Positions 26,778 through 44,047 are shown, counted from the first letter of the stretch. The stretch is 61,339 nucleotides of DNA from a virus (IMGVR_UViG_3300021959_000036:1-61339), one strand, 5' to 3'. A program made the numbers and translations. Notes: generated by a model not told the origin, from the sequence alone.

Positions 26778-29700
26778 TTAAACTCCTGTCACGGCAAAGT
26801 CTATTTGTGGTGTTATAACGTCTGATGTTCCATCAGGAGTTAATATATCGTGTGCTGATGCGCCGTTCGCAAAATAAACTGATACATTTGCTCCTTGTAA
26901 CCCTCTATCCAGAATAACTGCTTGTGGTAAAGCTATTTGGTTAGAACTTGCAGATACAGACAATGAAGTAATTTTAGGAATTTGAGTGTACCCCATTTGG
27001 CTGTAATCTATATTAACTACTTGTGTATCTACAGTCACAATTTCTGTGAATGTTTTTTCATCTAATGCAACTTGATACCTAAACTGATCTAATAATAACT
27101 CGGCTTGTGTTGGGTCTGTGTTAGTTACTTCATACTTAAATTGTAAGTATCTAAAAGTTCTAGCACCTGTAACAAAGTTACTAAATCCATCAGAATTAGC
27201 TACAGTAGTGAAGGCGCTTACATTAACATTACCATTAGCATAGAATGGATTATCTGTTGAGTATCTAAATAATAGATTACTTGTAACAATTCCTACAGTC
27301 CCATAAAAAGTCGATGACTCAGATAAATCTAGCCACTGTTTTAAGTTTACCAGTTTATAGGAGGTTCCTGCAACTGTTAAATTTGAAAAACCGTTACTTC
27401 CTGTAGATCTTCCATTAGCATACCAAGAATCTCCTAAAACAATTTCATCATCACTAGAAACCCCAGCGATTAGAGAAAAGACATTTGCATTTGAGTCATC
27501 TCCGTCAAAATTACCTAGAGTAACAATTCCGAATACATTAGCAGGAAAAGACCCTGAAATACCACTTACCAAAGTCTTATTCTCTACTCCATATGTTACT
27601 GTTGCAGCTCCTGTGTTAGAACTACCAAGAATTTCTCCTATACCCAAAGTACCGGAAAAATCTATATCTTTCAATATACCCGCACCAGAAGAGGCTTCAG
27701 TTACTTGATCTCCACCTATTTGGTCTGTATAATCTAACCAAGTAGATTTAAGAGATTGATCGCCTACAACAGTAGCAGATATAGATCCTGTTATTGTATT
27801 ACCTAAATCTCTAATCTGAGTTTGATAAACTGCATCTGATAAAGCTCTTAAGTCTGTAGGAGAGCCGCTAATTACACTCCATCCAGAGGAAGTTCCGTTA
27901 GAGTTGTCAACTACACTAGAGTCAAAAGCACTATCTGCTTTGGCAAAAGCCAATCCTCCAGTATTTGAGTCGGCAAAACTTGGAAAGTTTGTTTCTCCGT
28001 CATTTGCATTTGTAATACCAGTAATAAATGAAGTACCTGGGGAGTCTTCATTATAAGCTCTGTAAATATTAGTAAAACCTTGCGCAATAGAAGTAAAGGT
28101 AGATGCTACAATTGTTTCACTAAATATACCTGATGTATCTTTTGTTCTAGCTAAATATGTGTATTGCCCAAACTGATCAATATCTACAACAATTCTGTTT
28201 GTTCTAGCATCAACGATAGCGACTTCATCAGATCGAGGCCATAAGTCTAATAAGGTTGCTTGATCTGTAGCTACTTGTCCTGCGACTCTTCTTATTTGAA
28301 CTTCCATTAGATCAAGGTCAATATTGTCGCCTGTTACAGGATCAATTTGATATTTCCAAACAAAGAGGAGAGTATCGCCTGCCTGTCCAGCAGCAAAGTT
28401 TAGTACGTTTCGAGGTGGAGCAAGTTTTCCTATAATTTCTTGTGTTTTAGCAACTGTAGAGCCTCTAATATTTTTATTTAAAGGAGTAACCCTAGCAGTA
28501 ACAGTATTAGGGTTAGTATTTAATCCTTTTTCTATATTATCTATTTTAAATCTAATTTTACCATCAGAATCTACACCAGCAGCAGAAACTTTTACAGTGT
28601 TAAAGGATGTTAAATCTCCTGTAGCAGTTCCAGTTATTTTGTATGAAATTTCATAATCAGTAACTTCTTGTCCTTCAATATGGTCAAATATAATAATAGC
28701 TCTAACAGCTACACCAATTGTAGAGTCTTTATAAATTTCTTCTATAATATTTAAGTTAGAAACAGCTTTGATAGGAATGTTTCTTACAACAACTTCTTTT
28801 TGTACAAAGTCACTACGTCTTCCAAACTTATTAACATTTCTAGCCCTTACTGCGTGAACACCTGCTTCTGCTCTGTGTATATATCTAGTATTAGTACCAC
28901 TATCAAAATCTAAAGGAGTGAAGTTATCTAAAGGAACGTTTAGTCTGTAAACTGCATTATTAGCTAAATTTAGTAGACCTGGAAATCTTGTATGATCGTA
29001 ATCAAAAGTAAAAGTTTTTGCTCCAACATTTAAATTTCCTACAAGTCCAATAGGATTTGGAGTAACATTAATTGCATAAGCTTGGGCTACGTTAGATTTA
29101 ATGTTATCATCTAAAGTAACTCTAAATATACCATTAGCAGTTAGATAAGCATTGTAAGAAGGTGCTCCGATATCAAAAGTAGTGTCTGAAATTCCATAAG
29201 TATTACCTACATTCCAAGTCACATTGTCTCCTCTTTCGATAATAGGAGGAGTATAAACATTTGCTGTGACTCTAATATCAATATTAGCTTCTGCTGTAGG
29301 TAAAGAGGATAAAGAAATACTAACCTGAGAATTGGCTAAATTGTCTAACCCTTTTTCTAGAGTAAAGTTTGATGTTGCTTCATTATTTAAAAATACATCT
29401 ACAAACCCTGAATGCCTAACTGAAATACCAAGAGGTTGTTTGAAGGTATGAGTTTCAAATAAGTTAGTAGTTGTAGCTACATTTGTTCTGACTACCTCTA
29501 AATAATTACCAGTTACATAAAGAGTATTATTAGCAAAAAATCTATGATCAACTACCTGGGGTACGTTTATGAAAAAAGGAGGATTAGGAAGTAAACTTAC
29601 TAATTGTGAAGCGCCTGAATGATCATTATCAATTTTTATCGTGTGAGCAGATTTATCAAATCCAACTACGTTAGCACTATATCTTGCTAATCTAGTATCT

Positions 29701-32700
29701 GATCCTATAAAACCAAGTAACCCTGCAGCGTCTCCAGAACCTCCTTGAACTTTTTGATTTATGGGTAAAGAAATTCTATCGTTACCTTTTAAGCCTGCAA
29801 AATCAAAGGTATTATTTACGTCTAAAACATGTATATCGGAACCAAAGTTTTTATCAATTATTCCACCAAAACCAGATACTGATAAAGAAATATTACCATT
29901 TGCTTTATCAGGAGCTTCGTCTACTTTAGAATATCCATGAACTAACAAACGGGTGGTTGCAAATTCAAAAGAATAACCATTTTTCCCATAAATTATACAA
30001 GACTCTCCTTCTGTTACATTTTCAATATTGTCTAAATTCATTTCTACAATATCTCTAGATGCTTGAGGAGTAGCGTTAGAAATTAACTTAAGTGAGGTAG
30101 TAGGCCTAGACCGATAATACTCAGTTCTAAATTCATTTGAATACCCAGTTCTATCTGTTACAGCATTAATTTCAATATCTGTATATACTGACCCGTCTAA
30201 ATCCCTTTTTGGAATCGAACGAAGAGTAAATTGAGGAGCTGGAGGTTTTCTAAGGGGATCAAATAAATCATTGAATAATAAAGGGGAGTAGTTAATCAAA
30301 GTATCAGAATCAGTATAAACTGTAGGGATATACTCTGTAGCTTCTACATCAATTTTTTCTTCTTTGTCTCTTTTTAGATTAATTATTCTAAAAAGCTTTC
30401 CAGATAAAGAAGTGTAAATATCAGTAGGATCATTAATCTCTCCTAAAGACCAGACATCATACCTTTTAGGTCGGTTTAAATCACCCCAAGTAATAGTATC
30501 AAAACTTTTATTTTCATTATTCCACTTAGATAAAGCAACCACTTCAGCGATTTCAGTCCCTCCAGAAACGTTTGCAGTATTACTAAGGCTATAAGAAGTA
30601 TTACTAATTACGTAAGTATCAACATGCCCATTTTTTGTACTAGCTACTCTTAAGGCTAGAGGCCCTGAATTAGCAGTGAAGATGGTGCTAGTCAAAGAAG
30701 GAGCGCTAATATGTTCTAATTTAATATTAGATGTTGAAGCCCCGCTACTAGGAGTATCTTCAAAAACAATGCCTCCATAACCCCAAGAAACACTAGCACT
30801 TTTTTGAGATACAGAAATTACATCTCCTGGTTTTAACTCAGAAGCTTCAGAAGTGGTTTTAAAATTAACTTTTCTCCTAGAGTATTTTTTGTCAGCAATC
30901 ATATATTGCGCTAATCTAATAGCTTGACTTTTTCTTGTTATTCCATCCGTTGCTATATCAATAACATTTTCAATACCGTTTCTTTCGTCTAATGCGCGAG
31001 CATCATCAATTCTAAGAACTTCCTGCCTATAATGATTAGTAGGGTCTGTATAGGTTATATTAACACCAGTAATTAATTCTTCTTCATCAATTCCTGATAT
31101 ACTAAAAGTGTCTTTTAGTATATTAGTTTCATTAAATATAGCTACAGGTAAACTATCAGGTCTGTCTTGGAATAAGAATAACTTTCCGTTTTTATAGAAT
31201 AAAATAGCTCTAAAAGTGATTGTGATTATATTAACAACATCCATAACCTGTTTTTTATCACCTAAAGACCCATCGTATATAAACCGACGCTCTTTAACAG
31301 AAGTACCAGGAGGTAATCCTTGTAAAGTTTCAGAAACAGAACTTTTAGTGGTCCTTGGTTTATTACGGTAAGTTCCGTCTGCTGCCGCGTCAACTCCTTG
31401 AAATATTCCTGTAGTGATATCACAAGCATCACAGTATACAGCAGCGTCATAAAACGAGTATCTATCAATGTGATCCTCTGGTATGCCTAATCCATAAGAA
31501 CTATTAGTAAGCATATCATAAATTACCCAAACAGGGTTTTGAGTCCAAGAGTAAACAAATTGACCGTCCCATAATCCGTCATATATTAAAGGAGAGCTTT
31601 GAAGAGTGGGACCTGTTTTTTGTAGTCTAAATTGATAAGTAGACCTATCTGCATCTGATACTTCTACCTCTCTCCAATCAATTTCTCCGTTTTCTAAAAT
31701 AGGCTGATTGTAGTTAGAAGGAACCTTTATTAATAAGCCTTTTACCATCTGAGTAATTGCAGGCATAGACCCTTTATGTTCAGCAAAAGCTTTTAAAGCG
31801 TACCCAACTGTAGCTGTTCTTACATACCCAATAGGAGTCTCAATTACCTCAGTCCAGCCCTGGAAAGCGACATTTTCTTGAACTTTAGAAGAAGAATTGT
31901 CTGCGCTTGTTTTTTCTATTGTAAAAAGATAACCTAAATCAGAAACGTGTTCTGCTGGAATAGCAAGAAATAAATCAAAAGAATATGCAACATTTGTCTT
32001 TCCTGAAATAGTTCTTTCTTTAAAAGCAATTTCAGTAGTCCCAGTCCTATCATAAACAGTAGCCTTTACTGTAACAGAACTTCCTAAAATGTCGCCATTA
32101 GTGTTTTGTTTTTGAAGTCCTCCGATAGTAAAATAAAATTTAATAGCGGTCAAAGCAGTAGGACTAGTATTTTGTTTATCTACTGAAGATCTAGCTACTC
32201 CATCTAAGTTTCCTTTTTTAAGCTCAGTCGCTCCAGAGAGTCTTTGAGGAACAAATACAAAATCACCAAATAGAGGTAGAGGTTGTTGAGATACTGTTCC
32301 TGTGTTATTAAATATAAAGAACTTTTCATCATCTACTAAACCATTAATTAATAGATCATCAATAAGCCCTTCATTAAACTCGATATCTTGAGGACCATTA
32401 GGATTAATTCTGTAAATAGGTCCTTCGCCTAGTCCAAGTTGAAGAAATAAAACATCAGTTGAGAATAAATTATTTGGAGTTTCTGTACCGCCACCGCCAC
32501 CGCTTTTACCTCCGCCACCGCCATTGTGTACCTTAATACCATTAGCAATGTAAGAGTGTAAGTGAGATACTTTAAAATTGTATACAGGTTCTTCTTTTAA
32601 AAACTCTATTGAATTAATTTTAGATAATTGGTTATCTGTTGTTAATAATCTATCTCCAACAACAAAGTCTCCCATTTCTTGATATTCACCATCTTCTTTA

Positions 32701-32975
32701 AGAACCCAGTGATTTAAGGTAATATCAATATTTCCAGTTTCATGATTAACTCTATAGATTTTATCTTTTTGATGATAAAAAGTTTCAGTAACAAAAGATA
32801 AGACAGGCCGACCTATTTCATCATAAGCCCATACTTTATCTCCGACTTCAATATCACAAATTTGTTTTTGACCGTCTTCAATAGAGATAAGAGTGTCAGA
32901 GGCAAAACAGCCTCCACCACCTCCGCCTCCTTCAATAAGAGGAACTGCTTTATCATCAATATAAATAATAGTCAT
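26778..32975 (-). CDS. tail tip / central fibre protein (lambda gpJ-like) with N-terminal Hint domain
   Basis: LGEGPI, KVPSNY, WDG..WTQNPVW, YG.G, FnIII-like repeats; position after gpI-like gene. Confidence 0.88.
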   Translation of the reverse strand: MTIIYIDDKAVPLIEGGGGGGGCFASDTLISIEDGQKQICDIEVGDKVWAYDEIGRPVLSFVTETFYHQKDKIYRVNHETGNIDITLNHWVLKEDGEYQEMGDFVVGDRLLTTDNQLSKINSIEFLKEEPVYNFKVSHLHSYIANGIKVHNGGGGGKSGGGGGTETPNNLFSTDVLFLQLGLGEGPIYRINPNGPQDIEFNEGLIDDLLINGLVDDEKFFIFNNTGTVSQQPLPLFGDFVFVPQRLSGATELKKGNLDGVARSSVDKQNTSPTALTAIKFYFTIGGLQKQNTNGDILGSSVTVKATVYDRTGTTEIAFKERTISGKTNVAYSFDLFLAIPAEHVSDLGYLFTIEKTSADNSSSKVQENVAFQGWTEVIETPIGYVRTATVGYALKAFAEHKGSMPAITQMVKGLLIKVPSNYNQPILENGEIDWREVEVSDADRSTYQFRLQKTGPTLQSSPLIYDGLWDGQFVYSWTQNPVWVIYDMLTNSSYGLGIPEDHIDRYSFYDAAVYCDACDITTGIFQGVDAAADGTYRNKPRTTKSSVSETLQGLPPGTSVKERRFIYDGSLGDKKQVMDVVNIITITFRAILFYKNGKLFLFQDRPDSLPVAIFNETNILKDTFSISGIDEEELITGVNITYTDPTNHYRQEVLRIDDARALDERNGIENVIDIATDGITRKSQAIRLAQYMIADKKYSRRKVNFKTTSEASELKPGDVISVSQKSASVSWGYGGIVFEDTPSSGASTSNIKLEHISAPSLTSTIFTANSGPLALRVASTKNGHVDTYVISNTSYSLSNTANVSGGTEIAEVVALSKWNNENKSFDTITWGDLNRPKRYDVWSLGEINDPTDIYTSLSGKLFRIINLKRDKEEKIDVEATEYIPTVYTDSDTLINYSPLLFNDLFDPLRKPPAPQFTLRSIPKRDLDGSVYTDIEINAVTDRTGYSNEFRTEYYRSRPTTSLKLISNATPQASRDIVEMNLDNIENVTEGESCIIYGKNGYSFEFATTRLLVHGYSKVDEAPDKANGNISLSVSGFGGIIDKNFGSDIHVLDVNNTFDFAGLKGNDRISLPINQKVQGGSGDAAGLLGFIGSDTRLARYSANVVGFDKSAHTIKIDNDHSGASQLVSLLPNPPFFINVPQVVDHRFFANNTLYVTGNYLEVVRTNVATTTNLFETHTFKQPLGISVRHSGFVDVFLNNEATSNFTLEKGLDNLANSQVSISLSSLPTAEANIDIRVTANVYTPPIIERGDNVTWNVGNTYGISDTTFDIGAPSYNAYLTANGIFRVTLDDNIKSNVAQAYAINVTPNPIGLVGNLNVGAKTFTFDYDHTRFPGLLNLANNAVYRLNVPLDNFTPLDFDSGTNTRYIHRAEAGVHAVRARNVNKFGRRSDFVQKEVVVRNIPIKAVSNLNIIEEIYKDSTIGVAVRAIIIFDHIEGQEVTDYEISYKITGTATGDLTSFNTVKVSAAGVDSDGKIRFKIDNIEKGLNTNPNTVTARVTPLNKNIRGSTVAKTQEIIGKLAPPRNVLNFAAGQAGDTLLFVWKYQIDPVTGDNIDLDLMEVQIRRVAGQVATDQATLLDLWPRSDEVAIVDARTNRIVVDIDQFGQYTYLARTKDTSGIFSETIVASTFTSIAQGFTNIYRAYNEDSPGTSFITGITNANDGETNFPSFADSNTGGLAFAKADSAFDSSVVDNSNGTSSGWSVISGSPTDLRALSDAVYQTQIRDLGNTITGSISATVVGDQSLKSTWLDYTDQIGGDQVTEASSGAGILKDIDFSGTLGIGEILGSSNTGAATVTYGVENKTLVSGISGSFPANVFGIVTLGNFDGDDSNANVFSLIAGVSSDDEIVLGDSWYANGRSTGSNGFSNLTVAGTSYKLVNLKQWLDLSESSTFYGTVGIVTSNLLFRYSTDNPFYANGNVNVSAFTTVANSDGFSNFVTGARTFRYLQFKYEVTNTDPTQAELLLDQFRYQVALDEKTFTEIVTVDTQVVNIDYSQMGYTQIPKITSLSVSASSNQIALPQAVILDRGLQGANVSVYFANGASAHDILTPDGTSDVITPQIDFAVTGV
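32523..32909 (-). other. Hint (intein-like / BIL) autoprocessing domain, aa 23-151 of gpJ-like protein
   Basis: Block A CFASDTLI, block B TLNH, block F VYNFKV, block G ..VHN; no endonuclease; +1 residue is Gly. Confidence 0.88.
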
Positions 32976-32977
32976 TA

Positions 32978-33691
32978 TTAACCCTCTACTCTGGTTATTT
33001 CAGAGCTTTTTGCGTATAATAAATCTCTGACAAAAATAGTGTCAGACTCTCCATGAGTCATAGTTTCTACGTGACCGCTTAACATCTGTCCTGAAACTCT
33101 AGCAAGTCCATAAATAAGAGGCACCGAAGTATTCGGGTCTGTAGTGTTTTCCATAGCATCAAACATATCATTATTTCTTCTTTGCTGAGAAGAGTTAGAC
33201 GTCTCTGCTGAAGGCGGTTTCGGAGGAGTAGCTAGTAACTGCATCACCCCACTTAAAGCTAAACTAATACCTGCAGACACAATACTACCTGCGGTAATTG
33301 CAGCAGTTCCAGTAAGTCCCATTGCCGAATTAAGACCCGCAGCAATCGCAGGAGCATAGGCAATCATAACAACAGCTGCTATAATCATTAGTATAGGAAG
33401 AATTTTTCTTCCTCCTCCTGCAACAACGGGACAAAGTGTGTACTCATCATCTTGAACTAAGTTAAACTCAAACTCTTTCCTAGTTACAGGTGTTCCATCA
33501 GGTTTTACTAAACATAAATTTTCTTTCCCTAAAGAGTTATTCATAATTAGATGGATATACCTTCTCATTTTAGGAAATAAGACTACTAAAGCATCTTTAA
33601 TATCTTTTAACTTAGCAACTTCTATATTGTGCTGCTTTACACCCCCAGTAAACTTATATAAAGTCGGGTGAAAATTCAAAGTTATTAACAT
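32978..33691 (-). CDS. tail assembly protein I-like (ubiquitin-like beta-grasp domain)
   Basis: MoaD/Ubl-like N-terminal domain ending CPVVAGGG, hydrophobic segment, C-terminal VPLIYG...G. Confidence 0.8.
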   Translation of the reverse strand: MLITLNFHPTLYKFTGGVKQHNIEVAKLKDIKDALVVLFPKMRRYIHLIMNNSLGKENLCLVKPDGTPVTRKEFEFNLVQDDEYTLCPVVAGGGRKILPILMIIAAVVMIAYAPAIAAGLNSAMGLTGTAAITAGSIVSAGISLALSGVMQLLATPPKPPSAETSNSSQQRRNNDMFDAMENTTDPNTSVPLIYGLARVSGQMLSGHVETMTHGESDTIFVRDLLYAKSSEITRVEG

Positions 33692-34056
33692 ACCAAAGAC
33701 TCCTCATTAAAATCTTTAAACTCTAACATATTATGATCATTTAACCAGTATTGATAAAAAGAACCATTTAAATTTCCTACTACAAATTTATACTCTTTAT
33801 AAAAAGCAGAATTTTTATCTTCTTCACTAGGAAGGTCATCATGGTGTAAAGGGTGGCTATGAAAAATTCCCCAACAATTATCCCAATATTTAACTAAATC
33901 TGTAGGATTTAAAACAAAAGAATCTGCTGGCTGAGGACTAAGGTTTTTACTGGGAACATAAGAAAAATCCTTTGTAATAATACCACAGCATTCTACATTA
34001 GGATTTTCTTTCATATGCTCTTTAAAAGATTCAATTAATTTTGTAAACCTATCCAC
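33685..34056 (-). CDS. JAB/MPN (JAMM) metalloprotease, gpK N-domain-like
   Basis: E-C-C-G ... HSHP......PSEED JAMM motif. Confidence 0.85.
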   Translation of the reverse strand: MDRFTKLIESFKEHMKENPNVECCGIITKDFSYVPSKNLSPQPADSFVLNPTDLVKYWDNCWGIFHSHPLHHDDLPSEEDKNSAFYKEYKFVVGNLNGSFYQYWLNDHNMLEFKDFNEESLVC

Positions 34057-34466
34057 CTGTAAACCCCCATTGTATATTGTTTAAAATAATTACCATAAAC
34101 TGATGTATGTGATTTATGGTTTTGAAAAGTGTGTAAAATTTTATTATGTCCGATGTATATGGCACAATGATTAGTTATTGTAGAAGACCCCAGAACCATA
34201 GTTATTACATCAAACTCTTTTGGTTCTTTTACTCTTTTCCAGCCATAATCTTTTGACGACGCTTTTTTAATATAATCTTCGTGAATATTTTGATACCAGT
34301 ATTCATCTACTATTTTACACCAGTCTCTAGTAGTATACGGTATTTCTATTCCAAGTTCATTTTTATAAATACATTTAATTAGATTAAAACAATCTATGCC
34401 TTTTTCTAAGTCTAATCCTAGATGCTTAAAAGGAAGCCCTACGTATCTATCCCATTCCACCGCCAT
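34035..34466 (-). CDS. NlpC/P60 tail-associated peptidase
   Basis: GIDC...NHCAIY...ILH catalytic triad. Confidence 0.85.
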   Translation of the reverse strand: MAVEWDRYVGLPFKHLGLDLEKGIDCFNLIKCIYKNELGIEIPYTTRDWCKIVDEYWYQNIHEDYIKKASSKDYGWKRVKEPKEFDVITMVLGSSTITNHCAIYIGHNKILHTFQNHKSHTSVYGNYFKQYTMGVYRWIGLQN

Positions 34467-34867
34467 ATACTTGCAATTTCTTCTCTATACTCTTGATCCA
34501 GTACATCAATTTTAGAGAATTTCCCCTCTGCTAAATGAATAAACCTATTATTCTCTACATATAATCCAAAATGAGTAGGTATTAGTCTTCTTGATTTAAA
34601 TATTATTACATCATATTCTTGTAACTCTGTCAAGTTAACTTTTGTAGCAACTGTAGATGCCCAAGTTTCTAAGGAGGATATAGAAAAACGCTTCATCCAA
34701 CCTCTTCCATCTTTCGGCCTACCCTCCGGTAACTCTAAATACTCCCACAGCCCCTCAAATACGTTTGAATTAAGTTCATTTTTATAAATAGAATCTATCA
34801 AAGTAATACAATTATGCTCTGTGTAATTGTGTTTAAGTCCTAAATATTTAAGATATTTTAAGTCCAT
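34439..34867 (-). CDS. second NlpC/P60 protein
   Basis: HNC...HFGLY...FIH; paralog of the adjacent gene. Confidence 0.75.
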   Translation of the reverse strand: MDLKYLKYLGLKHNYTEHNCITLIDSIYKNELNSNVFEGLWEYLELPEGRPKDGRGWMKRFSISSLETWASTVATKVNLTELQEYDVIIFKSRRLIPTHFGLYVENNRFIHLAEGKFSKIDVLDQEYREEIASIWRWNGIDT

Positions 34868-36023
34868 TGTACCAATCTGCTAATTCTGGAACTACATCAG
34901 TAAAATTTTCATTTCTATTTCTATCTAATAATCCAGTATTTTTCTTAAATAGAGAAGACAATTTTTCTTTTTCTGGTAGCTCTCCTTTCATATATTTTAA
35001 CCAGTCTGACATATGACGTATATCCGATATATGTAAATCTTTTTTGTTATTTTCTATAAAACTTTTGTAATATATTAAAATATTTCTTTTTTCATTTTCA
35101 GGTAGTATTTGTAAAGAATAATAGGACGGAGTAACTAACGTAGTTCCAAACACAGGAATGTTTTTTCTTTTTCCCCATAAAAGCAACTTAGGCATAGAGT
35201 ATATGGTTAAAATTGATACTACAGAGCTAATAGTAGTAACATAGGGCTTAACTTTTTCTACATTAGACTCAAATTCTTCCCACACTAACTCTTTTCTAAC
35301 ATACTCTGATACGTTTTTATATCCATCACAACTAGTCCACAAGTTTACTTTTTTAAACTTTTTCCATAAGTCTAGAAGATCATATTCTTTAAATTTTAAA
35401 ATAGATAAATTAGTATTATACTGCACATTTATGTCAGTTTTACCTTTAGAGATTAAATATTCTAATATTTTATAGTGTTGCTCTAATACTAAAGGCTCTC
35501 CTCCTGCAAAATATAAAACCTCTAAGTTAGGATATATTAACTCTAATCCTTCCCAGAATAAATCATTATCCCACCGCTCTTCTTTTTTGCCTTGAATTGA
35601 AAATAAGTTTTTACCCTCTTTTATCCAAGCAGTACTAGAAGCAGGACCACAAGTTCTACATCTAAAGTTACAAGTATTTCCTACTCTAAAATCTATATAA
35701 GGGGGTGGAGGAGGGGTAAGTGTTTTTTGTAGATGCTCTTTGTGTTTCCAAAAATTGTTAGCGTTATTTTTTGGATTTTCACAAACGCCTAATTCATCTT
35801 TTTTAAAACAAGGGTTGTAACACTGTTCTGGTATTTTACCTTCTAAAAAAGATTTTCTTAATTCTATATAAGGAGTTCCATGCCACACATCCATGATAGA
35901 TTGTGAATTATCTCCTAAAGAATCTTTATTTGAAAAAGAATCTGAAAAGCAACAAGCTTTGTATTCCCCTCTCATATTACCATGCAAATGAATCCAAGGT
36001 AATATACACCCTTTTATTGCCAT
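34848..36023 (-). CDS. radical SAM protein with N-terminal twitch-like domain
   Basis: CILPW...CC...C..C N-terminal cluster; CNFRCRTC, AGGEP, YNTN, SCDG. Confidence 0.85.
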   Translation of the reverse strand: MAIKGCILPWIHLHGNMRGEYKACCFSDSFSNKDSLGDNSQSIMDVWHGTPYIELRKSFLEGKIPEQCYNPCFKKDELGVCENPKNNANNFWKHKEHLQKTLTPPPPPYIDFRVGNTCNFRCRTCGPASSTAWIKEGKNLFSIQGKKEERWDNDLFWEGLELIYPNLEVLYFAGGEPLVLEQHYKILEYLISKGKTDINVQYNTNLSILKFKEYDLLDLWKKFKKVNLWTSCDGYKNVSEYVRKELVWEEFESNVEKVKPYVTTISSVVSILTIYSMPKLLLWGKRKNIPVFGTTLVTPSYYSLQILPENEKRNILIYYKSFIENNKKDLHISDIRHMSDWLKYMKGELPEKEKLSSLFKKNTGLLDRNRNENFTDVVPELADWYNGLKIS

Positions 36024-37762
36024 TATTGTTTAGGTATCTGCCTTCCTGTTCCTGGAAATGCCCCAAAATGAACAGTATTGTTTCTAATTCTACACGCTTC
36101 ATAAGACTTTGAACATTCATCATCAGAGTCGGATACTGCAGCCTGATTATTAGCAAATATTGGGTTAGCATTAGAAGTTTTTGGAGGAAAAGTGCCGGGA
36201 ATGGGTAGACTACCAGGACCTGGGTATTGACACTCAGATCCTTTATAAACCCATTGACAGGTGTTTTTAAAAAATTTTCTTTTTGGTAATTGTAATTTAA
36301 AATATTGTAACCAACTAGTAAGCTCAAATTCAGCTACGGTTTCATTTAACAAATTAAGTTTAGTTACTTTAAATACATCTCTAACATAAGCTTCGTCGTC
36401 GTAGTTATCATTTACTATGTATAAATTTTCATTACGTTGTCCACTAGTTAAAGGAGCAGATAAAAACAATATTCTTTCTTCTTGAATATCTTGAATTTGA
36501 ACAGTGTTTGTAGAGAGTGTTGTAGTAACATTGTCTCCGGGTCTATAAGGAGAGCCATTTAAAACAGAAACTACATTATCATACATATAATCAATTTTTG
36601 AATGTTCTGGCCAGTATTTTAAATGGTTAGCAAAAGTAGTTTTAAACTCGACGACAGCGCCAAGTAAATCTCTACTATCTGATTTTAAATTTTTCCAAGT
36701 TTCTCCTAAAGAGGTAGCTTGATCATATAACCAAGGAGAGTTAGCCCCTCCATATATATTATCTACAGTATCTTGATTATAATGAGTATTGCCTGTAACA
36801 GTTCTAGGGTCAAGACCATACACAAGCTCTCCATTAACATATCCTTGAGCCGAATTAGAAGTTACATTCCCAACTATATAAGGATTCTCAACAAAAGTAG
36901 TAATTAAGTTATCATAGTTAGACATTGTAAAAGTTACTCGATCAATAGTACCGTCAGAAGAAGTTGCAATACCGTCTGCTTCCATAGGATACGGCGTATA
37001 GCTTTCTCCTTTAAATGTTACATTATAAGATAAATCAGAATAAATGTCTCCAATAACCTCTGCAAATCTTAAAGGGGTTTCTGTAGGCCATGCATACCCC
37101 GCACCAGTGCCAGAAGGATTACCAGCTTCATTAGGAGGATACCATTCTCCTGGGTAATAAACTTCTACAAGTCTAACAATAGGAGCTTGTGTAAAAGCAT
37201 TTAAAGTAGCAATGAAAGGACTATTATAAATAGCGCTTATAGTAGCCGTTGTAGAGCTTTGAACGTTTCCTAAATGTTGATGAGAGGATTGAAAAGAATA
37301 TGCTTGAGTATTTCCAGTTTGTCTTCTAATAGTAACAACGGAACCAGCATTTGGAGTAGCAAAAGCAAAAAACTCTAGTTGATTATTACCAGTATGATAA
37401 GTCCAACCAGATCTTTGAGCTAGATTAGAACCTACAAATACATCTAACTCAGAAATAATATCCGTGTCAACTGGAGAAGAAACAGAAATAAATAAACTTT
37501 GTCCGCCACCTGGAGTTGCACTTACAGTATGGGTACTAGAGTGAAAAGTATTTGAAATTAAATAGTGATTGCTAACAACAGACTCTGACACAGAAAACTC
37601 TTGGTCTACGTTAGACATTTTAACTTTAATATTGCTTGTGGAAGAGTCTACATTAGCTATATATCCAAAAGCATTAGAAGTTAACCCTAAAATAGTGTTG
37701 CCTTGTTTAAAGGGAGAAGTATCTGATACCGTTAAAATATAATCATATACTCTAGAACTCAT
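36023..37762 (-). CDS. minor tail protein L-like (Fe-S), N-terminally extended
   Basis: YTPYP, FEL, LPKR, CQW.YKGSECQY...DECSK...C..R...FGAFPG. Confidence 0.82.
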   Translation of the reverse strand: MSSRVYDYILTVSDTSPFKQGNTILGLTSNAFGYIANVDSSTSNIKVKMSNVDQEFSVSESVVSNHYLISNTFHSSTHTVSATPGGGQSLFISVSSPVDTDIISELDVFVGSNLAQRSGWTYHTGNNQLEFFAFATPNAGSVVTIRRQTGNTQAYSFQSSHQHLGNVQSSTTATISAIYNSPFIATLNAFTQAPIVRLVEVYYPGEWYPPNEAGNPSGTGAGYAWPTETPLRFAEVIGDIYSDLSYNVTFKGESYTPYPMEADGIATSSDGTIDRVTFTMSNYDNLITTFVENPYIVGNVTSNSAQGYVNGELVYGLDPRTVTGNTHYNQDTVDNIYGGANSPWLYDQATSLGETWKNLKSDSRDLLGAVVEFKTTFANHLKYWPEHSKIDYMYDNVVSVLNGSPYRPGDNVTTTLSTNTVQIQDIQEERILFLSAPLTSGQRNENLYIVNDNYDDEAYVRDVFKVTKLNLLNETVAEFELTSWLQYFKLQLPKRKFFKNTCQWVYKGSECQYPGPGSLPIPGTFPPKTSNANPIFANNQAAVSDSDDECSKSYEACRIRNNTVHFGAFPGTGRQIPKQ

Positions 37763-38739
37763 TAGCTAAAATCTTCCTTTAAAGTTATTTGAACTGAATA
37801 AAAATTTTGAGTAAGAGCACTTCCTCCAGAAATTACTTGTTCTATTTGTATAGGACCATCAAAACGAGTTCTAACAGTACCAGCTGAGTTAATATGGGCT
37901 AAATCAAAAGTAAAAGTTTCAAAGTCTCCATTTCTAGCAGTATAAAAATCCTCTATGGCTTGTTTCTCTACACCAGAAATATTATTATAAGTAAGCTCAA
38001 AAGTTCTCCTGCTTCTTCTGCTCATTAATCTACGCTTTTCATAACCAGATTGACTCTCGTATTTTTTAGTACTAAATTCTCTATCTATAGAAAAACCATT
38101 AGAAGGTTTCCTATCCCTCATATCTGTAAATCTACCTATAGAATCTACTTGAGGTATCAAAGTTCTAATTTCAAGAGTAGTATTAGCATAGTCTACCCCT
38201 CCATCGTCTATAGCAGGAGCTTCTGGAAAGTCTATTCCATTTACCCCTAGTGTAGCACTCGGATAGGTAAAAGCATCTTGGTTTTGTAAAACACCAGAAA
38301 GAGTTACAAAAATAGAATTCGCTTGGTTTTCTCCAAAATTTCCTAAAGCGGGAGTAGGAAGAGAAAAAGACGTTTGAACTCCGTTTAGCAAATAGGTGTT
38401 CGAATCAATTGTAGTAGCTGAAGTATTAGAATAACTAGCTACATAAACAGCTGGATAAGAGCGAGTAGCTCTAAATCTAGTAGGTAAATCAATAGTTTTA
38501 AATACTAACTCTGTAGCGTTTGGAGCGGCAATAAAAGTAACAGAACCCCCAGAATTAGATAAGTAGTATGAAGAAACATCTTGAACAATACCATCAATGG
38601 TAACTATTACATCTCCTACAAAAGAGACAGTAGAAGGAAGAGGGAATTCTATATCACTCCCAGTTGAATTATAAGTTTTTAGCCCTACAGTCCCAAAAGC
38701 GGTTAAAGAAACTGTTGCATCATCAGGATAAGTTGCCAT
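37762..38739 (-). CDS. distal tail protein (gpM/Dit-like) with two N-terminal accessory modules
   Basis: C-terminal SGYEKRR...FY.ARNG.FETFTF...RFD; directly follows TMP. Confidence 0.75.
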   Translation of the reverse strand: MATYPDDATVSLTAFGTVGLKTYNSTGSDIEFPLPSTVSFVGDVIVTIDGIVQDVSSYYLSNSGGSVTFIAAPNATELVFKTIDLPTRFRATRSYPAVYVASYSNTSATTIDSNTYLLNGVQTSFSLPTPALGNFGENQANSIFVTLSGVLQNQDAFTYPSATLGVNGIDFPEAPAIDDGGVDYANTTLEIRTLIPQVDSIGRFTDMRDRKPSNGFSIDREFSTKKYESQSGYEKRRLMSRRSRRTFELTYNNISGVEKQAIEDFYTARNGDFETFTFDLAHINSAGTVRTRFDGPIQIEQVISGGSALTQNFYSVQITLKEDFS

Positions 38740-38842: not shown

Positions 38843-41800
38843 TTATCTTCCGTTAGCTCTAATACTCTTTCTAATTGGTCCATTAGATTTCAAGTCTTTA
38901 AGTATCATTTTAACTACCATTGCTTCTCCGTCCATCATAGACTCGCCTTGTTCTGCATCTTTCTCCTGACCTGAATTTTCTATTTGAATCTTTACAGGAG
39001 GCATTCCAGATTTACCAGTAGCATTCATACGTTCCATAGCAGGGAGTCCCATAGATTCTACCGCACTTTTACGCATTACAAACTCTCCAGGCTCAAGAAG
39101 GGCAGGAACACTATCTCTTTGAAGCCCTCCCCCAGCAAAACGATGGACAGCTCCTCCTCCAGCCATTCTACCTATAGCACCGTATCCATTTACAAGTCCT
39201 CCGCTTGATAATAACATAGACTTTAGGAATATACCACCAATAGTACCAATAATACTACCTATAGCACTTCCTGCAGGTCCTCCAATTGCTCCTCCAACCA
39301 ATGCGCCTAACCCTGCACCTGCCATTTGAGCTATACTGCCTAAATTCATAAAAGAATTTCCAAGACTAAAGCTCTCGGTACCAAGAGCACTAAACTCCAT
39401 ACCGACCATCTGAGAAGCGTCAGTTATACCATTCATATCATACCCTACAGAAGAAGCATAGTCCTCAAGAGATCCTGAAAATCCACTCATATTAAATCCG
39501 TCTTCTAGGTCTTCTAAATCAGCGAAACCAAATTGTGTATCAGAGGTAGTTCCATCAAAACTTACTCCTTTTCCTAACCCTCCTACTCCGCCAGCTGCTT
39601 TTCCAGCTAAACCAGACAGTCCTTGACCGGTAGTAGTTACTAGTAGAGGACCAATTTGTCCTACTATTTGAACATTTGTAACTTCTCCAAAAGTCTTAGT
39701 TAAAAGATCAGTCTGTGCTTTGAGAGCGTCTCCAGTAATATTTGCTTGCTGTGCTCCATTAGCTTTAATTTGTGATGCTAATTGATTGAAGTTTTGTGTT
39801 TGTTGCTGCTGTTGTTTCGCACCTCTACCAGTAACCATATCAACAACACTTCTTATGCCTGTGCTTACAAAATCTTTTATAGGTGCTAAAACATACTCTT
39901 TAACAATCTCTTTTTGAATGTCTGCAAGAATGTCTGTGAGTAAATCTTTAACTCCTTGCTTAAAGTTTTGCATAGTAAGAGTTCCCTCTTTCATAGCTGT
40001 AAACAAGTCGTCAAGACCTTGATCTAATCTAGAGTTAACAATTCCAGCGGCTGCATTAGCTACTTTTCTAAATTTGTCATTTAACATCTCATTAAGTTGT
40101 TCTTGTGCTGCGATGGCTTTTAGTTTTGCCTCTACTTCATTCTCTGCTGCTTTCAGGGTCCTATTAGAAGCGTCTATTTCAATATCTTTTTGTCTTTTAG
40201 CGGCTTTAATTCTTTCTTCTAGACCAGCTAACTCTGTTTGTTTTTGCATATCTACGATAGCTTCTCTATCTCCAAAAGCCTTCTTTTGCATATTTAAAAT
40301 TTTCAATTCAGAGTCTATTGCGGCTACTCTCTTATCTCTTGCGCCTTCAATTGCATCTACTTTATTCTGTTCTTCTTGCAGAGCAATACTAGCTTGAGTT
40401 CCAGCAATCTTTTCTTGCGTGTCAAATAGTTCTTGGTTTTTAGCTTTTAGCAGCCTGACTTGTTCGACTAAACCATCTAGATTAAGGGTTTTTCCAAAAT
40501 CATCTCTCTTTAGATCAAATTGCATACCCATAGCTTCTGTAACTTTTTTAGCGTGTTGAAACAAAGCATCTCCTACAGCTTTTTGGTGTTTATCAAGTGC
40601 TTCAGCTTGTACCATCATTACATCTAACTGTTTATCTGTAAGTTCTTTTTGCACTTTTTGAGAAGCAAGAGTTGCGTTAATTTGGGCCAATCTAGACTCT
40701 CTGTCTAATTCAGCTTGGCGAATTTGATCAGTAGCATTTTGACCTACACTTGTTTTTTCTGCGTTTAAGGCTTTTATTCTATCAGCATTAATAGCTTTTT
40801 CATTTTCAAGCTTTTTTTCTTCTATTTCAAATCTTTTTTGAATTATGCCTTTTTCTGTATTAAGTAGTGCCAGTTGGTCTGTATATTTTTTCTTTGCTAA
40901 AGCAATTTCTTCTGCAGTTTGTTGTTTTTGAATTTCAGCAAGCTTTATTGCCTCAGAAGCGTCAATACGAAGAGCCTCTAATTCAATAGCTTGTCTGTCT
41001 CTATCAGTAAATAGATTACTAAAAGTAGAAGCAACAGTGCTTTTTCTTGCATTTTCTATACGGGCATCGTCTGCAGCAATTTTAGCAGCTATTCTTTGCT
41101 GATCTCTTAAAAGGTTATTTTGACGTAAAGTTTCTTCGGCCGCAGCAATCTTAGCGTCAACACCTTGTTTTGCAAGTTCTAATGTTGCCTGTTCATAGTC
41201 TAGTTGTACTTTGAGTCCATTAGTTATTTGAGCTTGTGCTTCTGCGGTGGCTTGAGAAATTTTATCTTTATCTGCTGCAATCTGCCTATTTCTTTTGTCT
41301 ATTTGTCCTTGCAAACTAATTTTTTCTAGCTTATTTGTCTCAATGGTTAGCTGTAACTGCGCTTTCTCAATAGCTTTATCCAACGCCTTATTTTGTTTTT
41401 CTATTTCTCGATTTATTTCAACATAAAGACCTTTTAAAGCTGTAACAGCTTTATTTTTTAATTGCTGTACTGCGTTGCTTGATTCTTCTCTGCCTAAAGC
41501 AGTAGTTAAAAAACTTAGCCTAGATTTTTCTACATCAGCAGCATCTTTATTTATTTTTACTGTTCCATCAGCTTCTACCCTAATGGCTTTATATAAATCT
41601 GCGGCAGCCTTTGTTTCTTTACCAAATAACTTTTTTATAGAATCTCCTAACTGGGCGATTCGCTCAGCTGCTTTTTGTGCTTCTCTGGTTATAGAACCCT
41701 CACCAAATAACTCTTTTATTTGCGTAAGCACAGCTGCATCAATACCTTCCATTCCTTCTAATTCTTTAAGAAGTTTTTCAAAGGTTTGACGTAAAGCCCC

Positions 41801-44047
41801 TGATGACTTGCTCAACCCTTCAGAAGTATAAGCAGTATCTTGTAACATTTTTTGATACTCAACAAGCATAGGCAAAAATATACCTAACGTTTTAGATTGA
41901 TTTAAAAGTTCTTGAGTAAATATTTGTTGAGGGCCGGAGTCCACTTCTTCCGCCTCTATAGCTCCTGCTTCTACCCCAGCTCTAAAATCTTGATTTAATT
42001 GAAATCTATTAATTACTCCTTTTTCGTTTGTCATTGCAGTAGTAGCTGCTTGAAATCTGCTAGCTATTCCGGGAGCAAGATTTTCTAAATATTCATATAA
42101 CTTTTTTGTTTCTTTTTGAAGTTCTGCTTGCACTCCTGAAATAGGGCTAACAACAGCGTCTTTTAAGGCTTTTCGGAACTCGGGAGTAACGTCTTTTAAC
42201 TTTCTAGTGACTTGTGTTACTATTTGATCTCCAGCAAGTGCTCGTATTGCCTTCTCTCTTTCCTCTAAAGCTTCTGTAGGCAATTGAACTATTCTTCTTA
42301 ATTCATTTTTATCTATGCCTTGAGTGTCTATACCTGCGCTTTGCAATAAAAGCCTAATATCGTTTGTTTGTCTAGACCCACCACGCTGCTTAAACTGTCT
42401 TGCAAATCCTTCTTGAAATTGTGTTGCTAATCTTTCTGCAGTTTTAGTAATTTCTGCTCCTGTTTTTTGTTCATCTGCACCAAAAAAGCTCTGGACAAAA
42501 TTTAAATCTCTTGTAAAAGCCTTATCCTGAAATCCCTTTAAATTTTGCATCGCAGATGAAGCATTGGCCGAAGTTTCTATTAATAACTTATTAAAAACTG
42601 CTTGTGCCCTGTTTGCTGCGTTTGCTTTTCTAGTATATTCTTCAAAAAATGATTTAATCTTTTCGCCTGCTGCTGAAAATAAATCTATCCCAAAAACAAC
42701 TTTTCCTATTGTAGAAGATAAAAGTTGAAAAATAGAAACTATAAAAAAGATTTTACCAATAGCACCTACTAATATATTAACCGCTTTAGTAGCTCCTGAA
42801 ATAACTTTAGTGGCAAAAGCAGTTGCTGTAGCTGCGATTTGTGCTCCACGACCTAAATTTTTATACGCCTCCGTCGCCGCACCTAAAGCAAGTTTAACGT
42901 TTACTCCTGCTCTTTGTTGCGCTTCTAAAGCTTTAACTAGGCTACGCAATTCTACCGCAGTTAAAGTACCTTGTCTTCCTAGTTTAACTAGTTCTCGGAC
43001 TTGATTTTGAGTTTCTCTAGTTCCTCTAACTAATTTTAGGTTAAAGCTATCTAATTCTTTTCCTAAAGTTGCTTGTAACTGTCCCCCTGCTTGAGCAGCT
43101 CTAGCACTAAAAGTTTCTGCTAATCTGGCACCAAAATTTTGAACAGATATAGTAGCTCGACCAAGACCGGCACTAGTTACTTCAGCGAGTTTAGAAAAGA
43201 TTAGCCCTCCTAGAACACCCGCTGCCGCTAAAGTATTTGCAAAGTTTCCAGATAAGAAACTAACGAAAGGAACGACAGCTTGTGCCAAAATACCTAGTAG
43301 ATTATCAGATAAATTTTGCAAGTCAGCACTAAACTTATTTAGAGCCTCTGCGCTCGTAGTTACTGATGTATCAATAATAGAGAACTTTTTAGTACCTTGA
43401 TCAATAGTAGCATTAGCAAAAGCTTGACTTCTTTCATAAGTAGTTAAGTCACTAGCAGCTTTACCAATAGAGTCAGCGTATTTTTTAACCGCATCGTCTA
43501 ATCTAACAATAATACCCAATTCGTCCAAAATTTCCGGTTCAATCTTAGCAACACCTCGAATTAACCTGTCTTGAGAATCAACCAAGTTTCTTCCCAAAGC
43601 AACAGAAGCTTTTAAGGCTACGTTTGTTAATTTTTCAATTTGTTCTGAATTAAATCCTGCGGATAACGCAAGGTTAGTAGTCTTAGCTGCTTCTGCAATG
43701 CTAAGTTGTCCTTTAGTAATTTCTTGAATTTTTGAAAGAATTTTATCGCCCTGTTCTCCAACTGTTGCAGCTAGAGTTCTAGTCCCATCAATAGCTTGTT
43801 GACTTTGAGCAGCTCGGTTTAAAGCATTAAAGGCAGAAGAAATAGCAAAGATTGTTGCAGCAGCACCGGCATAGGCGGCAACCAAACCACCTAAACCAGA
43901 AGCTTGTGCGGAAAACTGACGCCCTGCAGAAGCAGAAGACTGTCCAAGACGAGTTTGAGCTTTTGTAACATTTTGAGTAGAGGTAGCAGCTTTTTCTGCC
44001 CCCTTTGTTACAAACATTGTCTCAATGATATTTCTGATACTTGCCAC
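38843..44047 (-). CDS. tape measure protein
   Basis: 1734 aa, helical A/Q/K-rich; EPEILDELGI; C-terminal AGGG..DSVPALLEPGEFVM. Confidence 0.93.
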   Translation of the reverse strand: MASIRNIIETMFVTKGAEKAATSTQNVTKAQTRLGQSSASAGRQFSAQASGLGGLVAAYAGAAATIFAISSAFNALNRAAQSQQAIDGTRTLAATVGEQGDKILSKIQEITKGQLSIAEAAKTTNLALSAGFNSEQIEKLTNVALKASVALGRNLVDSQDRLIRGVAKIEPEILDELGIIVRLDDAVKKYADSIGKAASDLTTYERSQAFANATIDQGTKKFSIIDTSVTTSAEALNKFSADLQNLSDNLLGILAQAVVPFVSFLSGNFANTLAAAGVLGGLIFSKLAEVTSAGLGRATISVQNFGARLAETFSARAAQAGGQLQATLGKELDSFNLKLVRGTRETQNQVRELVKLGRQGTLTAVELRSLVKALEAQQRAGVNVKLALGAATEAYKNLGRGAQIAATATAFATKVISGATKAVNILVGAIGKIFFIVSIFQLLSSTIGKVVFGIDLFSAAGEKIKSFFEEYTRKANAANRAQAVFNKLLIETSANASSAMQNLKGFQDKAFTRDLNFVQSFFGADEQKTGAEITKTAERLATQFQEGFARQFKQRGGSRQTNDIRLLLQSAGIDTQGIDKNELRRIVQLPTEALEEREKAIRALAGDQIVTQVTRKLKDVTPEFRKALKDAVVSPISGVQAELQKETKKLYEYLENLAPGIASRFQAATTAMTNEKGVINRFQLNQDFRAGVEAGAIEAEEVDSGPQQIFTQELLNQSKTLGIFLPMLVEYQKMLQDTAYTSEGLSKSSGALRQTFEKLLKELEGMEGIDAAVLTQIKELFGEGSITREAQKAAERIAQLGDSIKKLFGKETKAAADLYKAIRVEADGTVKINKDAADVEKSRLSFLTTALGREESSNAVQQLKNKAVTALKGLYVEINREIEKQNKALDKAIEKAQLQLTIETNKLEKISLQGQIDKRNRQIAADKDKISQATAEAQAQITNGLKVQLDYEQATLELAKQGVDAKIAAAEETLRQNNLLRDQQRIAAKIAADDARIENARKSTVASTFSNLFTDRDRQAIELEALRIDASEAIKLAEIQKQQTAEEIALAKKKYTDQLALLNTEKGIIQKRFEIEEKKLENEKAINADRIKALNAEKTSVGQNATDQIRQAELDRESRLAQINATLASQKVQKELTDKQLDVMMVQAEALDKHQKAVGDALFQHAKKVTEAMGMQFDLKRDDFGKTLNLDGLVEQVRLLKAKNQELFDTQEKIAGTQASIALQEEQNKVDAIEGARDKRVAAIDSELKILNMQKKAFGDREAIVDMQKQTELAGLEERIKAAKRQKDIEIDASNRTLKAAENEVEAKLKAIAAQEQLNEMLNDKFRKVANAAAGIVNSRLDQGLDDLFTAMKEGTLTMQNFKQGVKDLLTDILADIQKEIVKEYVLAPIKDFVSTGIRSVVDMVTGRGAKQQQQQTQNFNQLASQIKANGAQQANITGDALKAQTDLLTKTFGEVTNVQIVGQIGPLLVTTTGQGLSGLAGKAAGGVGGLGKGVSFDGTTSDTQFGFADLEDLEDGFNMSGFSGSLEDYASSVGYDMNGITDASQMVGMEFSALGTESFSLGNSFMNLGSIAQMAGAGLGALVGGAIGGPAGSAIGSIIGTIGGIFLKSMLLSSGGLVNGYGAIGRMAGGGAVHRFAGGGLQRDSVPALLEPGEFVMRKSAVESMGLPAMERMNATGKSGMPPVKIQIENSGQEKDAEQGESMMDGEAMVVKMILKDLKSNGPIRKSIRANGR

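Follow-up and report, generated by a model that had tools for sequence, protein, structure and literature searches.

We report a Hint domain inserted near the N-terminus of gpJ, the central tail fibre protein, of an uncultured marine phage with lambda-like tail-tip genes. The source is the whole IMG/VR virus record IMGVR_UViG_3300021959_000036 (61,339 bases; 53% complete by CheckV), which we call the window. Our analyses suggest that the Hint is probably a self-excising cassette of the bacterial intein-like (BIL) kind, with no partnership specific to it among the neighbouring JAB protease and ubiquitin-like (Ubl) genes. The anatomy, conservation, distribution and swapping of this cassette were observed directly; its chemistry we infer. 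Every gene of interest lies on the minus strand, and gpJ is laid out as follows:

26778-32975, minus strand: gpJ, central tail fibre / tip attachment protein, 2065 aa including the Hint (open reading frame (ORF), Pfam, phrog, predicted fold)
32931-32975, minus strand: gpJ leader, aa 1-15, MTIIYIDDKAVPLIE
32910-32930, minus strand: N-flank poly-Gly tract, aa 16-22 (G7), with Gly22 as the -1 residue
32523-32909, minus strand: Hint, aa 23-151, 129 aa, CFASDT...GIKVHN (Pfam, alignment, AlphaFold2, Foldseek)
32907-32909, minus strand: catalytic site C23 of the Hint
32709-32720, minus strand: catalytic site TLNH (aa 86-89) of the Hint
32523-32528, minus strand: catalytic site HN (aa 150-151) of the Hint
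32487-32522, minus strand: C-flank Gly/Lys linker, aa 152-163, GGGGGKSGGGGG, with Gly152 at +1 and Lys157 at +6

This order of leader, G7, Hint (C23...TLNH...VYNF...HN151) and linker had been given in a preliminary description of the window and proved correct in every detail. The VYNF motif lies at gpJ aa 131-134, and the G7 tract is encoded by a mix of GGA, GGC and GGT codons. Past the linker the protein continues with TETPNNLFSTD and then a lambda-like J body, recognised by Pfam (Phage-tail_3, 9.8e-15; FNIII-A_GpJ, 8.4e-11), by phrog_31 (central tail fiber J, 2.6e-88) and by the match of its predicted fold to the lambda tail-tip chain 8K35_A (Foldseek E 5.2e-15). Relatives of the body among cultured phages are distant, all 1165 matching records being less than 60% identical (21-26% among the rows listed). 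An AlphaFold2 model of gpJ aa 1-420, built from a 57-row alignment, had a mean predicted local distance difference test score (pLDDT) of 85.2 and a predicted template modelling score of 0.50. Within it the Hint (aa 23-151) scored 88-97 and the leader 41-53, while the linkers (aa 12-19 and 153-161) fell below 50 and appear disordered; at its pLDDT of 41-53 the leader had no confident placement on either the Hint or the J body in this model.

The insert belongs to the HINT superfamily by both residues and fold. An N-terminal Cys or Ser and a block-B Thr-x-x-His are present as C23 and T86-L-N-H89, and Foldseek matched the predicted structure to BIL, intein and Hedgehog structures with a probability of 1.00 and target-normalised template modelling (TM) scores of 0.77-0.90, among them Tetrahymena BIL2 (6Y75_B, 0.80), the NpuDnaB intein (0.84), the Clostridium thermocellum BIL domain 2LWY (0.87) and the gp41-1 mini-intein (6RIZ, 0.90). 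The top-ranked structure was 6Y75_B (E 4.3e-10). By sequence the nearest solved structure is 2LWY (E 1.2e-6), by a small margin over gp41-1 (1.6e-6), with BIL2 of Tetrahymena BUBL1 (6Y75) next at 5.7e-5. Pfam families PT-HINT (32.1 bits, cut-off 27.7) and Hint (31.0 bits, cut-off 29.7) both passed their gathering thresholds; Intein_splicing, the mark of a canonical intein, scored 23.5 bits, under its cut-off of 35.8. The domain has the C-terminal Asn of canonical inteins (HN at aa 150-151) but no Cys, Ser or Thr at +1, which excludes canonical splicing. A His-Asn end without a +1 nucleophile, together with the PT-HINT score, is typical of type-A BIL / PT-HINT domains, and we assign the gpJ insert to this kind, with intact catalytic residues and a predicted activity. 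No second Hint copy was found in the 61,339-base record, itself 53% complete. Among cultured phages, 16 of 50,697 records match aa 23-151 at E <= 1e-3 with about 30% identity. All are helicase, terminase, polymerase or unannotated genes and none is a gpJ; the canonical relatives examined have Cys at +1 (2 of 2).

We then asked how far these features extend among relatives. A search with gpJ aa 1-420 returned 184 proteins at E <= 0.001, the best 120 of which were analysed. The Hint is present in 37 of them (36 by script, P0042 by eye) and absent from 83 (81 parsed, together with P0059 and P0074). In a 37-row alignment of the window Hint with those of the 36 parsed homologues, C1, F2, His46, Thr64-x-Asn66-His67 and the terminal Asn are invariant (37/37), in domains that are 36-99% alike and whose identity to the window over the N-terminal region goes down to 36%. 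The penultimate residue is His, with Ser in one 135-aa subgroup. At +1 the parsed homologues have G (21) or K (15), P0042 has K by eye and the window has G, so that C, S or T occurs there in none of the 37 homologues, nor in the window. Lys at +6 is found in all 20 listed members of the window clade; Ser158 (+7) and Thr164 (+13) of the window are not conserved among homologues. A canonical intein, the +1 nucleophile of which occurs in no gpJ homologue, was rejected as a candidate.

The same combination extends to a wider family. A phmmer search of 1.84 billion cluster representatives with just the Hint as query found 4861 matches at E <= 0.001; among the best 150 of these were 148 new proteins, with 209 full-length Hint copies. 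The +1 residue in the 209 copies was K in 141, G in 28, A in 14, R in 6, S in 4, V and D in 3 each, Q, C and Y in 2 each, and L, E, I and T in one each. By phmmer with the J body, 24 of the 148 representatives are gpJ-like, and 23 of these hold a full-length Hint copy, the first Hint beginning at residue 4-42; Pfam on six of the gpJ-like representatives found FNIII-A_GpJ above threshold in 6/6 and Phage-tail_3 in 5/6. Their 26 copies have G (18) or K (8) at +1. The preliminary description had noted intact catalytic blocks without a +1 nucleophile in the window; with G or K at +1 in the 37 database homologues and these 26 further copies, the lack of that nucleophile extends to all of them. Of the 180 copies outside gpJ, 131 carry K at +1 and 7 carry C, S or T; this non-gpJ set includes arrays of 3-4 Hints separated only by KG, KGG or KGGG. 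Since a missing +1 nucleophile and Gly-rich flanks recur across the wider family, they are traits of the Hint lineage and not accidents of this phage. On the question of whether the gpJ Hints form a single lineage, a joint tree of 245 Hint copies left 100 of its 241 branches unresolved, and the automatic gpJ label used with it missed most of the distant gpJ proteins.

Tandem Hints were seen in two settings. Three of the 23 gpJ-like representatives (P0129, P0131 and P0167) have two N-terminal Hints in tandem, with G5-8K(G) between them. Non-phage proteins (P0125, P0126, P0134, P0136, P0139 and about 15 more) have a signal-peptide-like N-terminus ending ..ARGGGG and 3-4 tandem Hints, followed by a Gly/Ser-rich stretch and a hydrophobic helix, with a Tim44-like domain in P0125 and P0126.

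The position of the Hint within gpJ is the same throughout. Every Hint-bearing homologue has the flanks '...VPxIxG(A/S)(K)GG' and '(G/K)GGGK...EDPNSLFSTD', and Hint-less homologues read '...VPxIxG(A/S)KGG-KGGGG...EDPNSLFSTD', the two flanks joined. Because Hint-less gpJ proteins keep both leader and linker, the Hint represents an insertion into gpJ, at a single fixed point, and the alignment indicates that leader and Gly/Lys linker are a property of the gpJ family itself. Aligning gpJ homologues was a check suggested in the preliminary description, to see whether the Hint always sits in the Gly linker and co-occurs with JAB and Ubl genes; the position proved constant, whereas the co-occurrence is not specific to Hint-bearing loci (below).

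The Hint is distributed sporadically over the gpJ phylogeny. On a tree of gpJ bodies (FastTree, first 450 J-body residues, 118 rows; P0042, P0059 and P0074, with unparsed motifs, left out) its presence requires at least 4 changes, of which 3 are imposed by branches supported at 95 or more, against a mean of 31.6 when shuffled. Our trees are FastTree or quick IQ-TREE runs on short alignments, and such counts are minima that do not separate gain from loss. A Hint-less protein, P0035, is nested with support 100 in the window clade of 21 Hint-bearing rows, and a second Hint-bearing clade (P0026, P0028, P0030, P0031, P0036, P0037) and the lone P0032 stand among Hint-less rows. In the 37-row Hint tree, the Hint of P0033 joins those of P0026, P0028, P0030 and P0031 (support 100), while its body lies in the main clade.

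Exchange between close relatives is seen most directly at the locus level. Scanning IMG/VR with the gpJ alignment gave 433 related stretches, the best 80 of which were kept (35 Hint-bearing, 45 Hint-less). At one of them, L011, the NlpC/P60, JAB and gpI products are 93-100% identical to those of the window, and its gpJ matches in the leader (22/22), the linker (12/12) and the body (94-98%). Its Hint, however, shares only 69% identity with the window Hint but 97.7% with the one at another locus, L001. In 150-nt steps the DNA identity of L011 to the window is 0.97-0.99 and drops to 0.69-0.75 across the Hint only. A different Hint allele between near-identical flanks shows that the Hint is exchanged as a cassette, the ends of which are the poly-Gly tracts. 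The GC content at third codon positions (GC3) is equal in the Hint and the gpJ body (0.171 and 0.172), which marks the Hint as a long-term resident of this phage group; a recent foreign acquisition is, by the same figures, not supported. Together, these comparisons indicate that the Hint has evolved vertically within clades, with several gains or losses, tandem duplication in some gpJs and swaps between near-identical phages. The preliminary description had named a pattern that would count against its own proposal, in which the Hint is inserted sporadically, splices normally and is not associated with the GG motif. Insertion is indeed sporadic, by the gpJ tree and the cassette swap, but neither normal splicing nor a lack of association with the GG motif was found.

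How would such a domain act? Excerpts of published reviews describe type-A BILs as having His-Asn ends and no +1 nucleophile, as giving mainly cleavage products, and as able to splice once the amine that Asn cyclisation sets free has attacked the N-terminal thioester (PMC4031507, PMC7664689, PMC7765530). In gpJ, Cys23 would undergo an N-S acyl shift at Gly22|Cys23, giving a thioester with Gly22, and cyclisation of Asn151 would cut at Asn151|Gly152. Self-removal of the Hint would thus free a J body starting GGGGGKSGGGGG-TETPNN, similar to the N-terminus of lambda gpJ (MGKGSSKG), which has no leader and begins MGKGSSKGHTPREAKDNL..., the counterpart of the post-Hint linker. With no Cys, Ser or Thr at +1, the leader would either be lost by hydrolysis or be re-joined, the newly exposed alpha-amine attacking the Gly thioester as in the proposed type-A BIL route, and Gly at both -1 and +1 in flexible tracts would favour either outcome.

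The genes upstream of gpJ bear on the fate of the leader and are listed here in their order in the module:

38843-44047, minus strand: tape measure
37762-38739, minus strand: DUF2460 protein at the gpM position
36023-37762, minus strand: gpL
34848-36023, minus strand: radical SAM/SPASM protein, between the gpL and NlpC/P60 genes (Pfam)
34439-34867 and 34035-34466 (overall 34035..34867), minus strand: two NlpC/P60 paralogues, the peptidase part of a split gpK
33685-34056, minus strand: JAB/MPN metalloprotease, the JAB part of the split gpK, 123 aa (Prok-JAB 8.7e-9)
32978-33691, minus strand: gpI-like tail assembly protein, 237 aa (phrog_32 6.5e-24)

In gpI, an N-terminal Ubl-type domain, so labelled following excerpts of PMC1779556, ends LCPVVAGGG (aa 87-94, nt 33410-33433) and is followed by a hydrophobic Gly/Ala stretch and a C-terminal domain. 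The preliminary description had noted that the gpJ leader (P-L-I-E-G-G-G) resembles this tail (P-V-V-A-G-G-G), and the likeness generalises: across loci the gpI N-terminal domain ends '..hhPxhxGGGGKRGG' and gpJ starts '..VPxIxG(A/G)(K/G)GGKGG'. The gpI tail motif is conserved across loci, lambda gpI having ..IVPRVAGAKSGG (VPRVAGAKSGG), and P14, I16 and G18 of the leader are invariant in 17 Hint-less sequences. We scanned the 497,807 residues of all six-frame ORFs of at least 60 aa in the 80 loci with the motif [VILMAC]-P-x-[VILM]-x-G-[GASK]-[GASK]-G. Of its 129 matches, 70 were gpJ leaders, 58 were gpI tails and 1, classed as 'other', was a gpI cut by a contig end; none of the 497,807 residues thus carried the motif outside these two places. 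Within the 29,140 residues of the window it matched the gpJ leader only, the gpI tail having one mismatch, an R at the last position. The resemblance between leader and gpI Ubl tail is thus genuine and a feature of the whole family.

According to excerpts of Iyer et al. 2006 (PMC1779556), JAB is predicted to cleave behind the final glycine of the Ubl domain. Lambda virions show resolved residues 1-807 of gpJ and 134-222 of gpI but no resolved gpK (PMC12617516), which is compatible with removal of the Ubl part of gpI. Since the leader resembles the gpI Ubl tail, it may be trimmed by JAB in Hint-less phages anyway, and since it is present in Hint-less relatives, its role needs no Hint. We predicted the complex between the JAB protein of a Hint-less locus, L046 (alignment A4), and aa 1-60 of the gpJ of the same locus (A5), with zinc riding along. 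Three runs scored 0.57, 0.49 and 0.57, with at least 60% of contacts in agreement and a partner pLDDT of at least 47, and the best of three controls scored 0.00, a result classed as weak support. In a calibration set run without user-supplied alignments or a riding ligand, 58 of 80 solved complexes passed, as did 2 of 110 mismatched pairs, and scores of at most 0.60 were those of only 7 of the 80 solved complexes and of both mismatched pairs that passed. We take this prediction as a lead only, in keeping with the suggestion that JAB may cleave the leader in Hint-less phages. If the leader is normally trimmed by JAB, a Hint that does not splice would cost nothing at this place, which would explain both why it is tolerated and why it keeps to the site.

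The gene order M-L-(radical SAM)-NlpC/P60 x2-JAB-I-J is that of lambda M-L-K-I-J with K split into three ORFs, which makes JAB and Ubl genes beside J the standard arrangement; Iyer et al. had already reported JAB beside gpJ and a gpI with a Ubl domain in 2006 (excerpts of PMC1779556). The gpJ, gpI, JAB and NlpC/P60 families of a lambda-type tail-tip module are all present in this order, and the JAMM motif is intact. The NLPC_P60 matches of the two paralogues are 7.8e-13 and 1.2e-5 in Pfam, with a further match to phrog_30 (minor tail protein). The JAMM protease reported upstream in the preliminary description was confirmed, its gene keeping E22, H66-S-H68, S77 and D80, and these residues (E22, H66, S67, H68, S77, D80) are invariant in 24 of 24 sequences, from 13 Hint-less and 11 Hint-bearing loci. 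Neighbours were counted, by tblastn with the window proteins, only in loci with enough upstream DNA. With at least 1400 nt upstream, JAB was detected in 26 of 27 Hint-bearing and 27 of 27 Hint-less loci, and JAB together with gpI in 26 of 27 and 25 of 27, respectively; with at least 3700 nt upstream, the radical SAM gene was found in 14 of 17 Hint-bearing and 12 of 15 Hint-less loci. Equal counts in both sets rule out a Hint-specific JAB/Ubl partnership. The idea that Hint, JAB and Ubl form a self-contained system is not supported: JAB and gpI are the ordinary lambda K and I genes (PMC1779556, in excerpts) and stand equally beside Hint-less gpJ.

Some further features of these neighbours were observed. 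The split K (33685-34867, minus strand) consists of three overlapping ORFs, compared with the single lambda gpK (JAB + NlpC/P60), and this layout is kept across the 80 related loci wherever the flank shows it. Two tandem gpI paralogues, each with its own Ubl-type tail motif and C-terminal domain, lie between JAB and gpJ in L015 (-1892..-534 relative to the gpJ body), L027, L052 and L059. The gpI C-terminal domain contains, at aa ~190-205, a second leader-like string (..TSVPLIYGLARVSG), similar to the gpJ leader AVPLIEG and to lambda gpI NVLPVLYGEMRVG. For the radical SAM protein, the gpJ leader or a tail-tip protein are candidate substrates.

Several points weigh against self-excision as the whole account. 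All of its chemistry is deduced from conserved residues and from family behaviour described in reviews, and invariant catalytic residues would suit a recruited function equally as well as a selfish element that must leave. Even in gpJ subfamilies that share only 28-31% identity with that of the window, the Hint occupies this one site, with no homing endonuclease; such fidelity would be hard to get by chance insertion, and the site or the product could be functionally selected. The preference for Lys at +1 (131/180 non-gpJ copies) hints at a role for lysine, which plain cleavage would leave unexplained. Removal of the leader in Hint-less phages is suggested by a single complex prediction, classed as weak support, and as the trees were quick and the alignments short, the numbers of gains and losses are minimum estimates only.

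Lysine is at the centre of an alternative that we consider unlikely, namely ligation of the kind known from the Tetrahymena BUBL locus, in which the Gly thioester of the Ubl-tail-like leader would be attacked by the epsilon-amine of a lysine and not by water or an alpha-amine. The attacking residue would be the gpJ linker lysine at +1 or +6, or else one in another tail protein, and the tail-tip protein would become isopeptide-branched or cross-linked with no need for E1 or ATP; N-terminal lysines might also be blocked in this way against conjugation of host Ubl. There is precedent: in excerpts of PMC8616854, Tetrahymena BIL2 makes an isopeptide between a Lys epsilon-NH2 and a C-terminus and conjugates the upstream Ubl without ATP, and BIL2 is the top Foldseek structure for the Hint (6Y75_B, E 4.3e-10) as well as a sequence match (5.7e-5). 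Lys is at +1 in 16 of 37 gpJ homologues and in 131 of 180 non-gpJ copies, and at +6 in all 20 listed members of the window clade; the leader copies the gpI Ubl tail; and host Bil systems target the central tail fibre (excerpts of bioRxiv 10.1101/2023.09.04.556158). Yet the N-extein is a 15-aa leader with glycines, and the 22 residues before the Hint form a small low-confidence hairpin (AlphaFold2 pLDDT 41-53) in place of a complete Ubl domain. Hint-less relatives share the leader and the linker lysines, which are therefore older than the Hint and function in its absence. A Lys near +1 is missing from some gpJ subfamilies (e.g., ...HN|GGYRASYP and ...HN|GGHRDRFP), the Hint has been lost without visible compensation (P0035) and is swapped freely, and in the neighbourhood counts no E2/E3-like or target-specific gene co-occurs with it. 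For the E1-independent ligation proposed in the preliminary description there is a published BIL precedent (PMC8616854), in a domain that is among the closest solved folds.

A more specific form of this idea, somewhat less likely in our estimation, is that the leader is a minimal Ubl tail handled by JAB and the Hint a Lys-directed splicing domain using the Lys at +1 (or +6). The lysine would attack the Gly thioester, and Asn cyclisation would release the Hint, leaving the leader joined by an isopeptide bond to the first lysine of mature gpJ or to a lysine of a neighbouring tail protein.

Of about the same low likelihood is recruitment of the Hint for tail-tip maturation, as a removable pro-domain that delays gpJ trimerisation or tip assembly, or as a replacement for trimming by JAB, with self-cleavage as the timing step. 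The insertion coincides with the point behind the Gly run at which JAB-type cleavage would be predicted, intact catalytic residues are retained across the 21-member clade and in distant gpJ subfamilies, and lambda tail assembly starts with trimerisation of gpJ (summarised in excerpts of bioRxiv 10.1101/2023.09.04.556158). However, JAB is fully conserved in Hint-bearing phages, its JAMM residues being invariant in 11 Hint-bearing sequences, so the Hint does not replace it. Close relatives such as P0035 do without the Hint, and the interchangeability of Hint alleles in one background is the pattern of a passenger rather than of a tuned regulator.

It is very unlikely that the Hint stays unprocessed and forms an additional N-terminal domain of gpJ in the virion, or that it is a canonical intein using another nucleophile: although self-cleavage is so far predicted from sequence and the window has Ser158 (+7) and Thr164 (+13), invariance of C1, TxNH and the terminal Asn (37/37) in an otherwise fast-evolving domain argues for catalysis, neither of the two nucleophiles is conserved in homologues, canonical cultured-phage relatives have Cys directly at +1 (2/2 examined), and the lambda J N-terminus is built into the tip (residues 1-807 resolved, PMC12617516), which would leave little room for three 14-kDa domains.

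A self-excising cassette thus remains our preferred reading, and what is new is a nucleophile-less Hint of BIL type in a conserved virion protein, at one fixed site and in many uncultured phages; among open-access papers and preprints we found none that describes such a domain, Hint or BIL, in gpJ or in any central tail fibre. The leader, as a copy of the gpI Ubl tail, provides a concrete substrate hypothesis for the JAB domain of gpK in lambda-type tail assembly. In excerpts of bioRxiv 10.1101/2023.09.04.556158, the Bil defence system is described as attaching a Ubl to the central tail fibre, and the authors speculate that deubiquitinase-like tail assembly proteins of phages counter Bil. If the Hint merely excises, it would be an example of an intein relative surviving without splicing in a dispensable or processed linker. 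The preference for Lys at +1 and the BUBL precedent make lysine-directed splicing worth a direct biochemical test: were it true, the ...VHN|K(G)GG Hint family, including the secreted bacterial tandem arrays, would be a further class of protein splicing with a lysine nucleophile, and phages would use E1-free, ubiquitin-like marking or cross-linking of the tail tip.

Among known systems, the gpJ Hint shares with type-A BIL / PT-HINT domains (e.g., C. thermocellum BIL4, 2LWY) the N-terminal Cys, the block-B TxxH, the His-Asn end and the missing +1 nucleophile. Its host is a conserved phage virion protein, whereas those domains are found in variable secreted bacterial proteins or polymorphic toxins, and it differs from them in its one fixed site in an N-terminal Gly/Lys linker, its poly-Gly flanks, its G or K at +1 and its exchange as a phage cassette, with self-cleavage predicted here. 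Class-1 mini-inteins (gp41-1 and the helicase inteins of Vibrio phages 13VV501A and K453) are about 30% identical to it end to end over aa 23-151 and have the same size, the same fold (6RIZ, TM 0.90), no endonuclease domain and a terminal HN. They have Cys at +1 (2/2) and lie inside conserved enzyme motifs, unlike the gpJ Hint, which never has C, S or T at +1 and lies in a low-complexity linker. BIL2 of the Tetrahymena thermophila BUBL (6Y75/6TMM; excerpts of PMC8616854) directly follows a Gly-ended Ubl-type C-terminus, as does the gpJ Hint; the former is eukaryotic with a whole Ubl domain upstream, and the latter, known here from its sequence, is a phage domain preceded by a Ubl-tail-like leader of ~15 aa. 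Lastly, lambda K (JAB + NlpC/P60), I (Ubl + C-domain) and J have the same gene order and families as the module described here, and the lambda gpI tail VPRVAGAKSGG resembles the xPxIxGGGGK of this family. Compared with lambda, this phage group has K in three ORFs with two NlpC/P60 paralogues, a radical SAM gene between L and K, a leader on gpJ and, in a subset of its members, the Hint.

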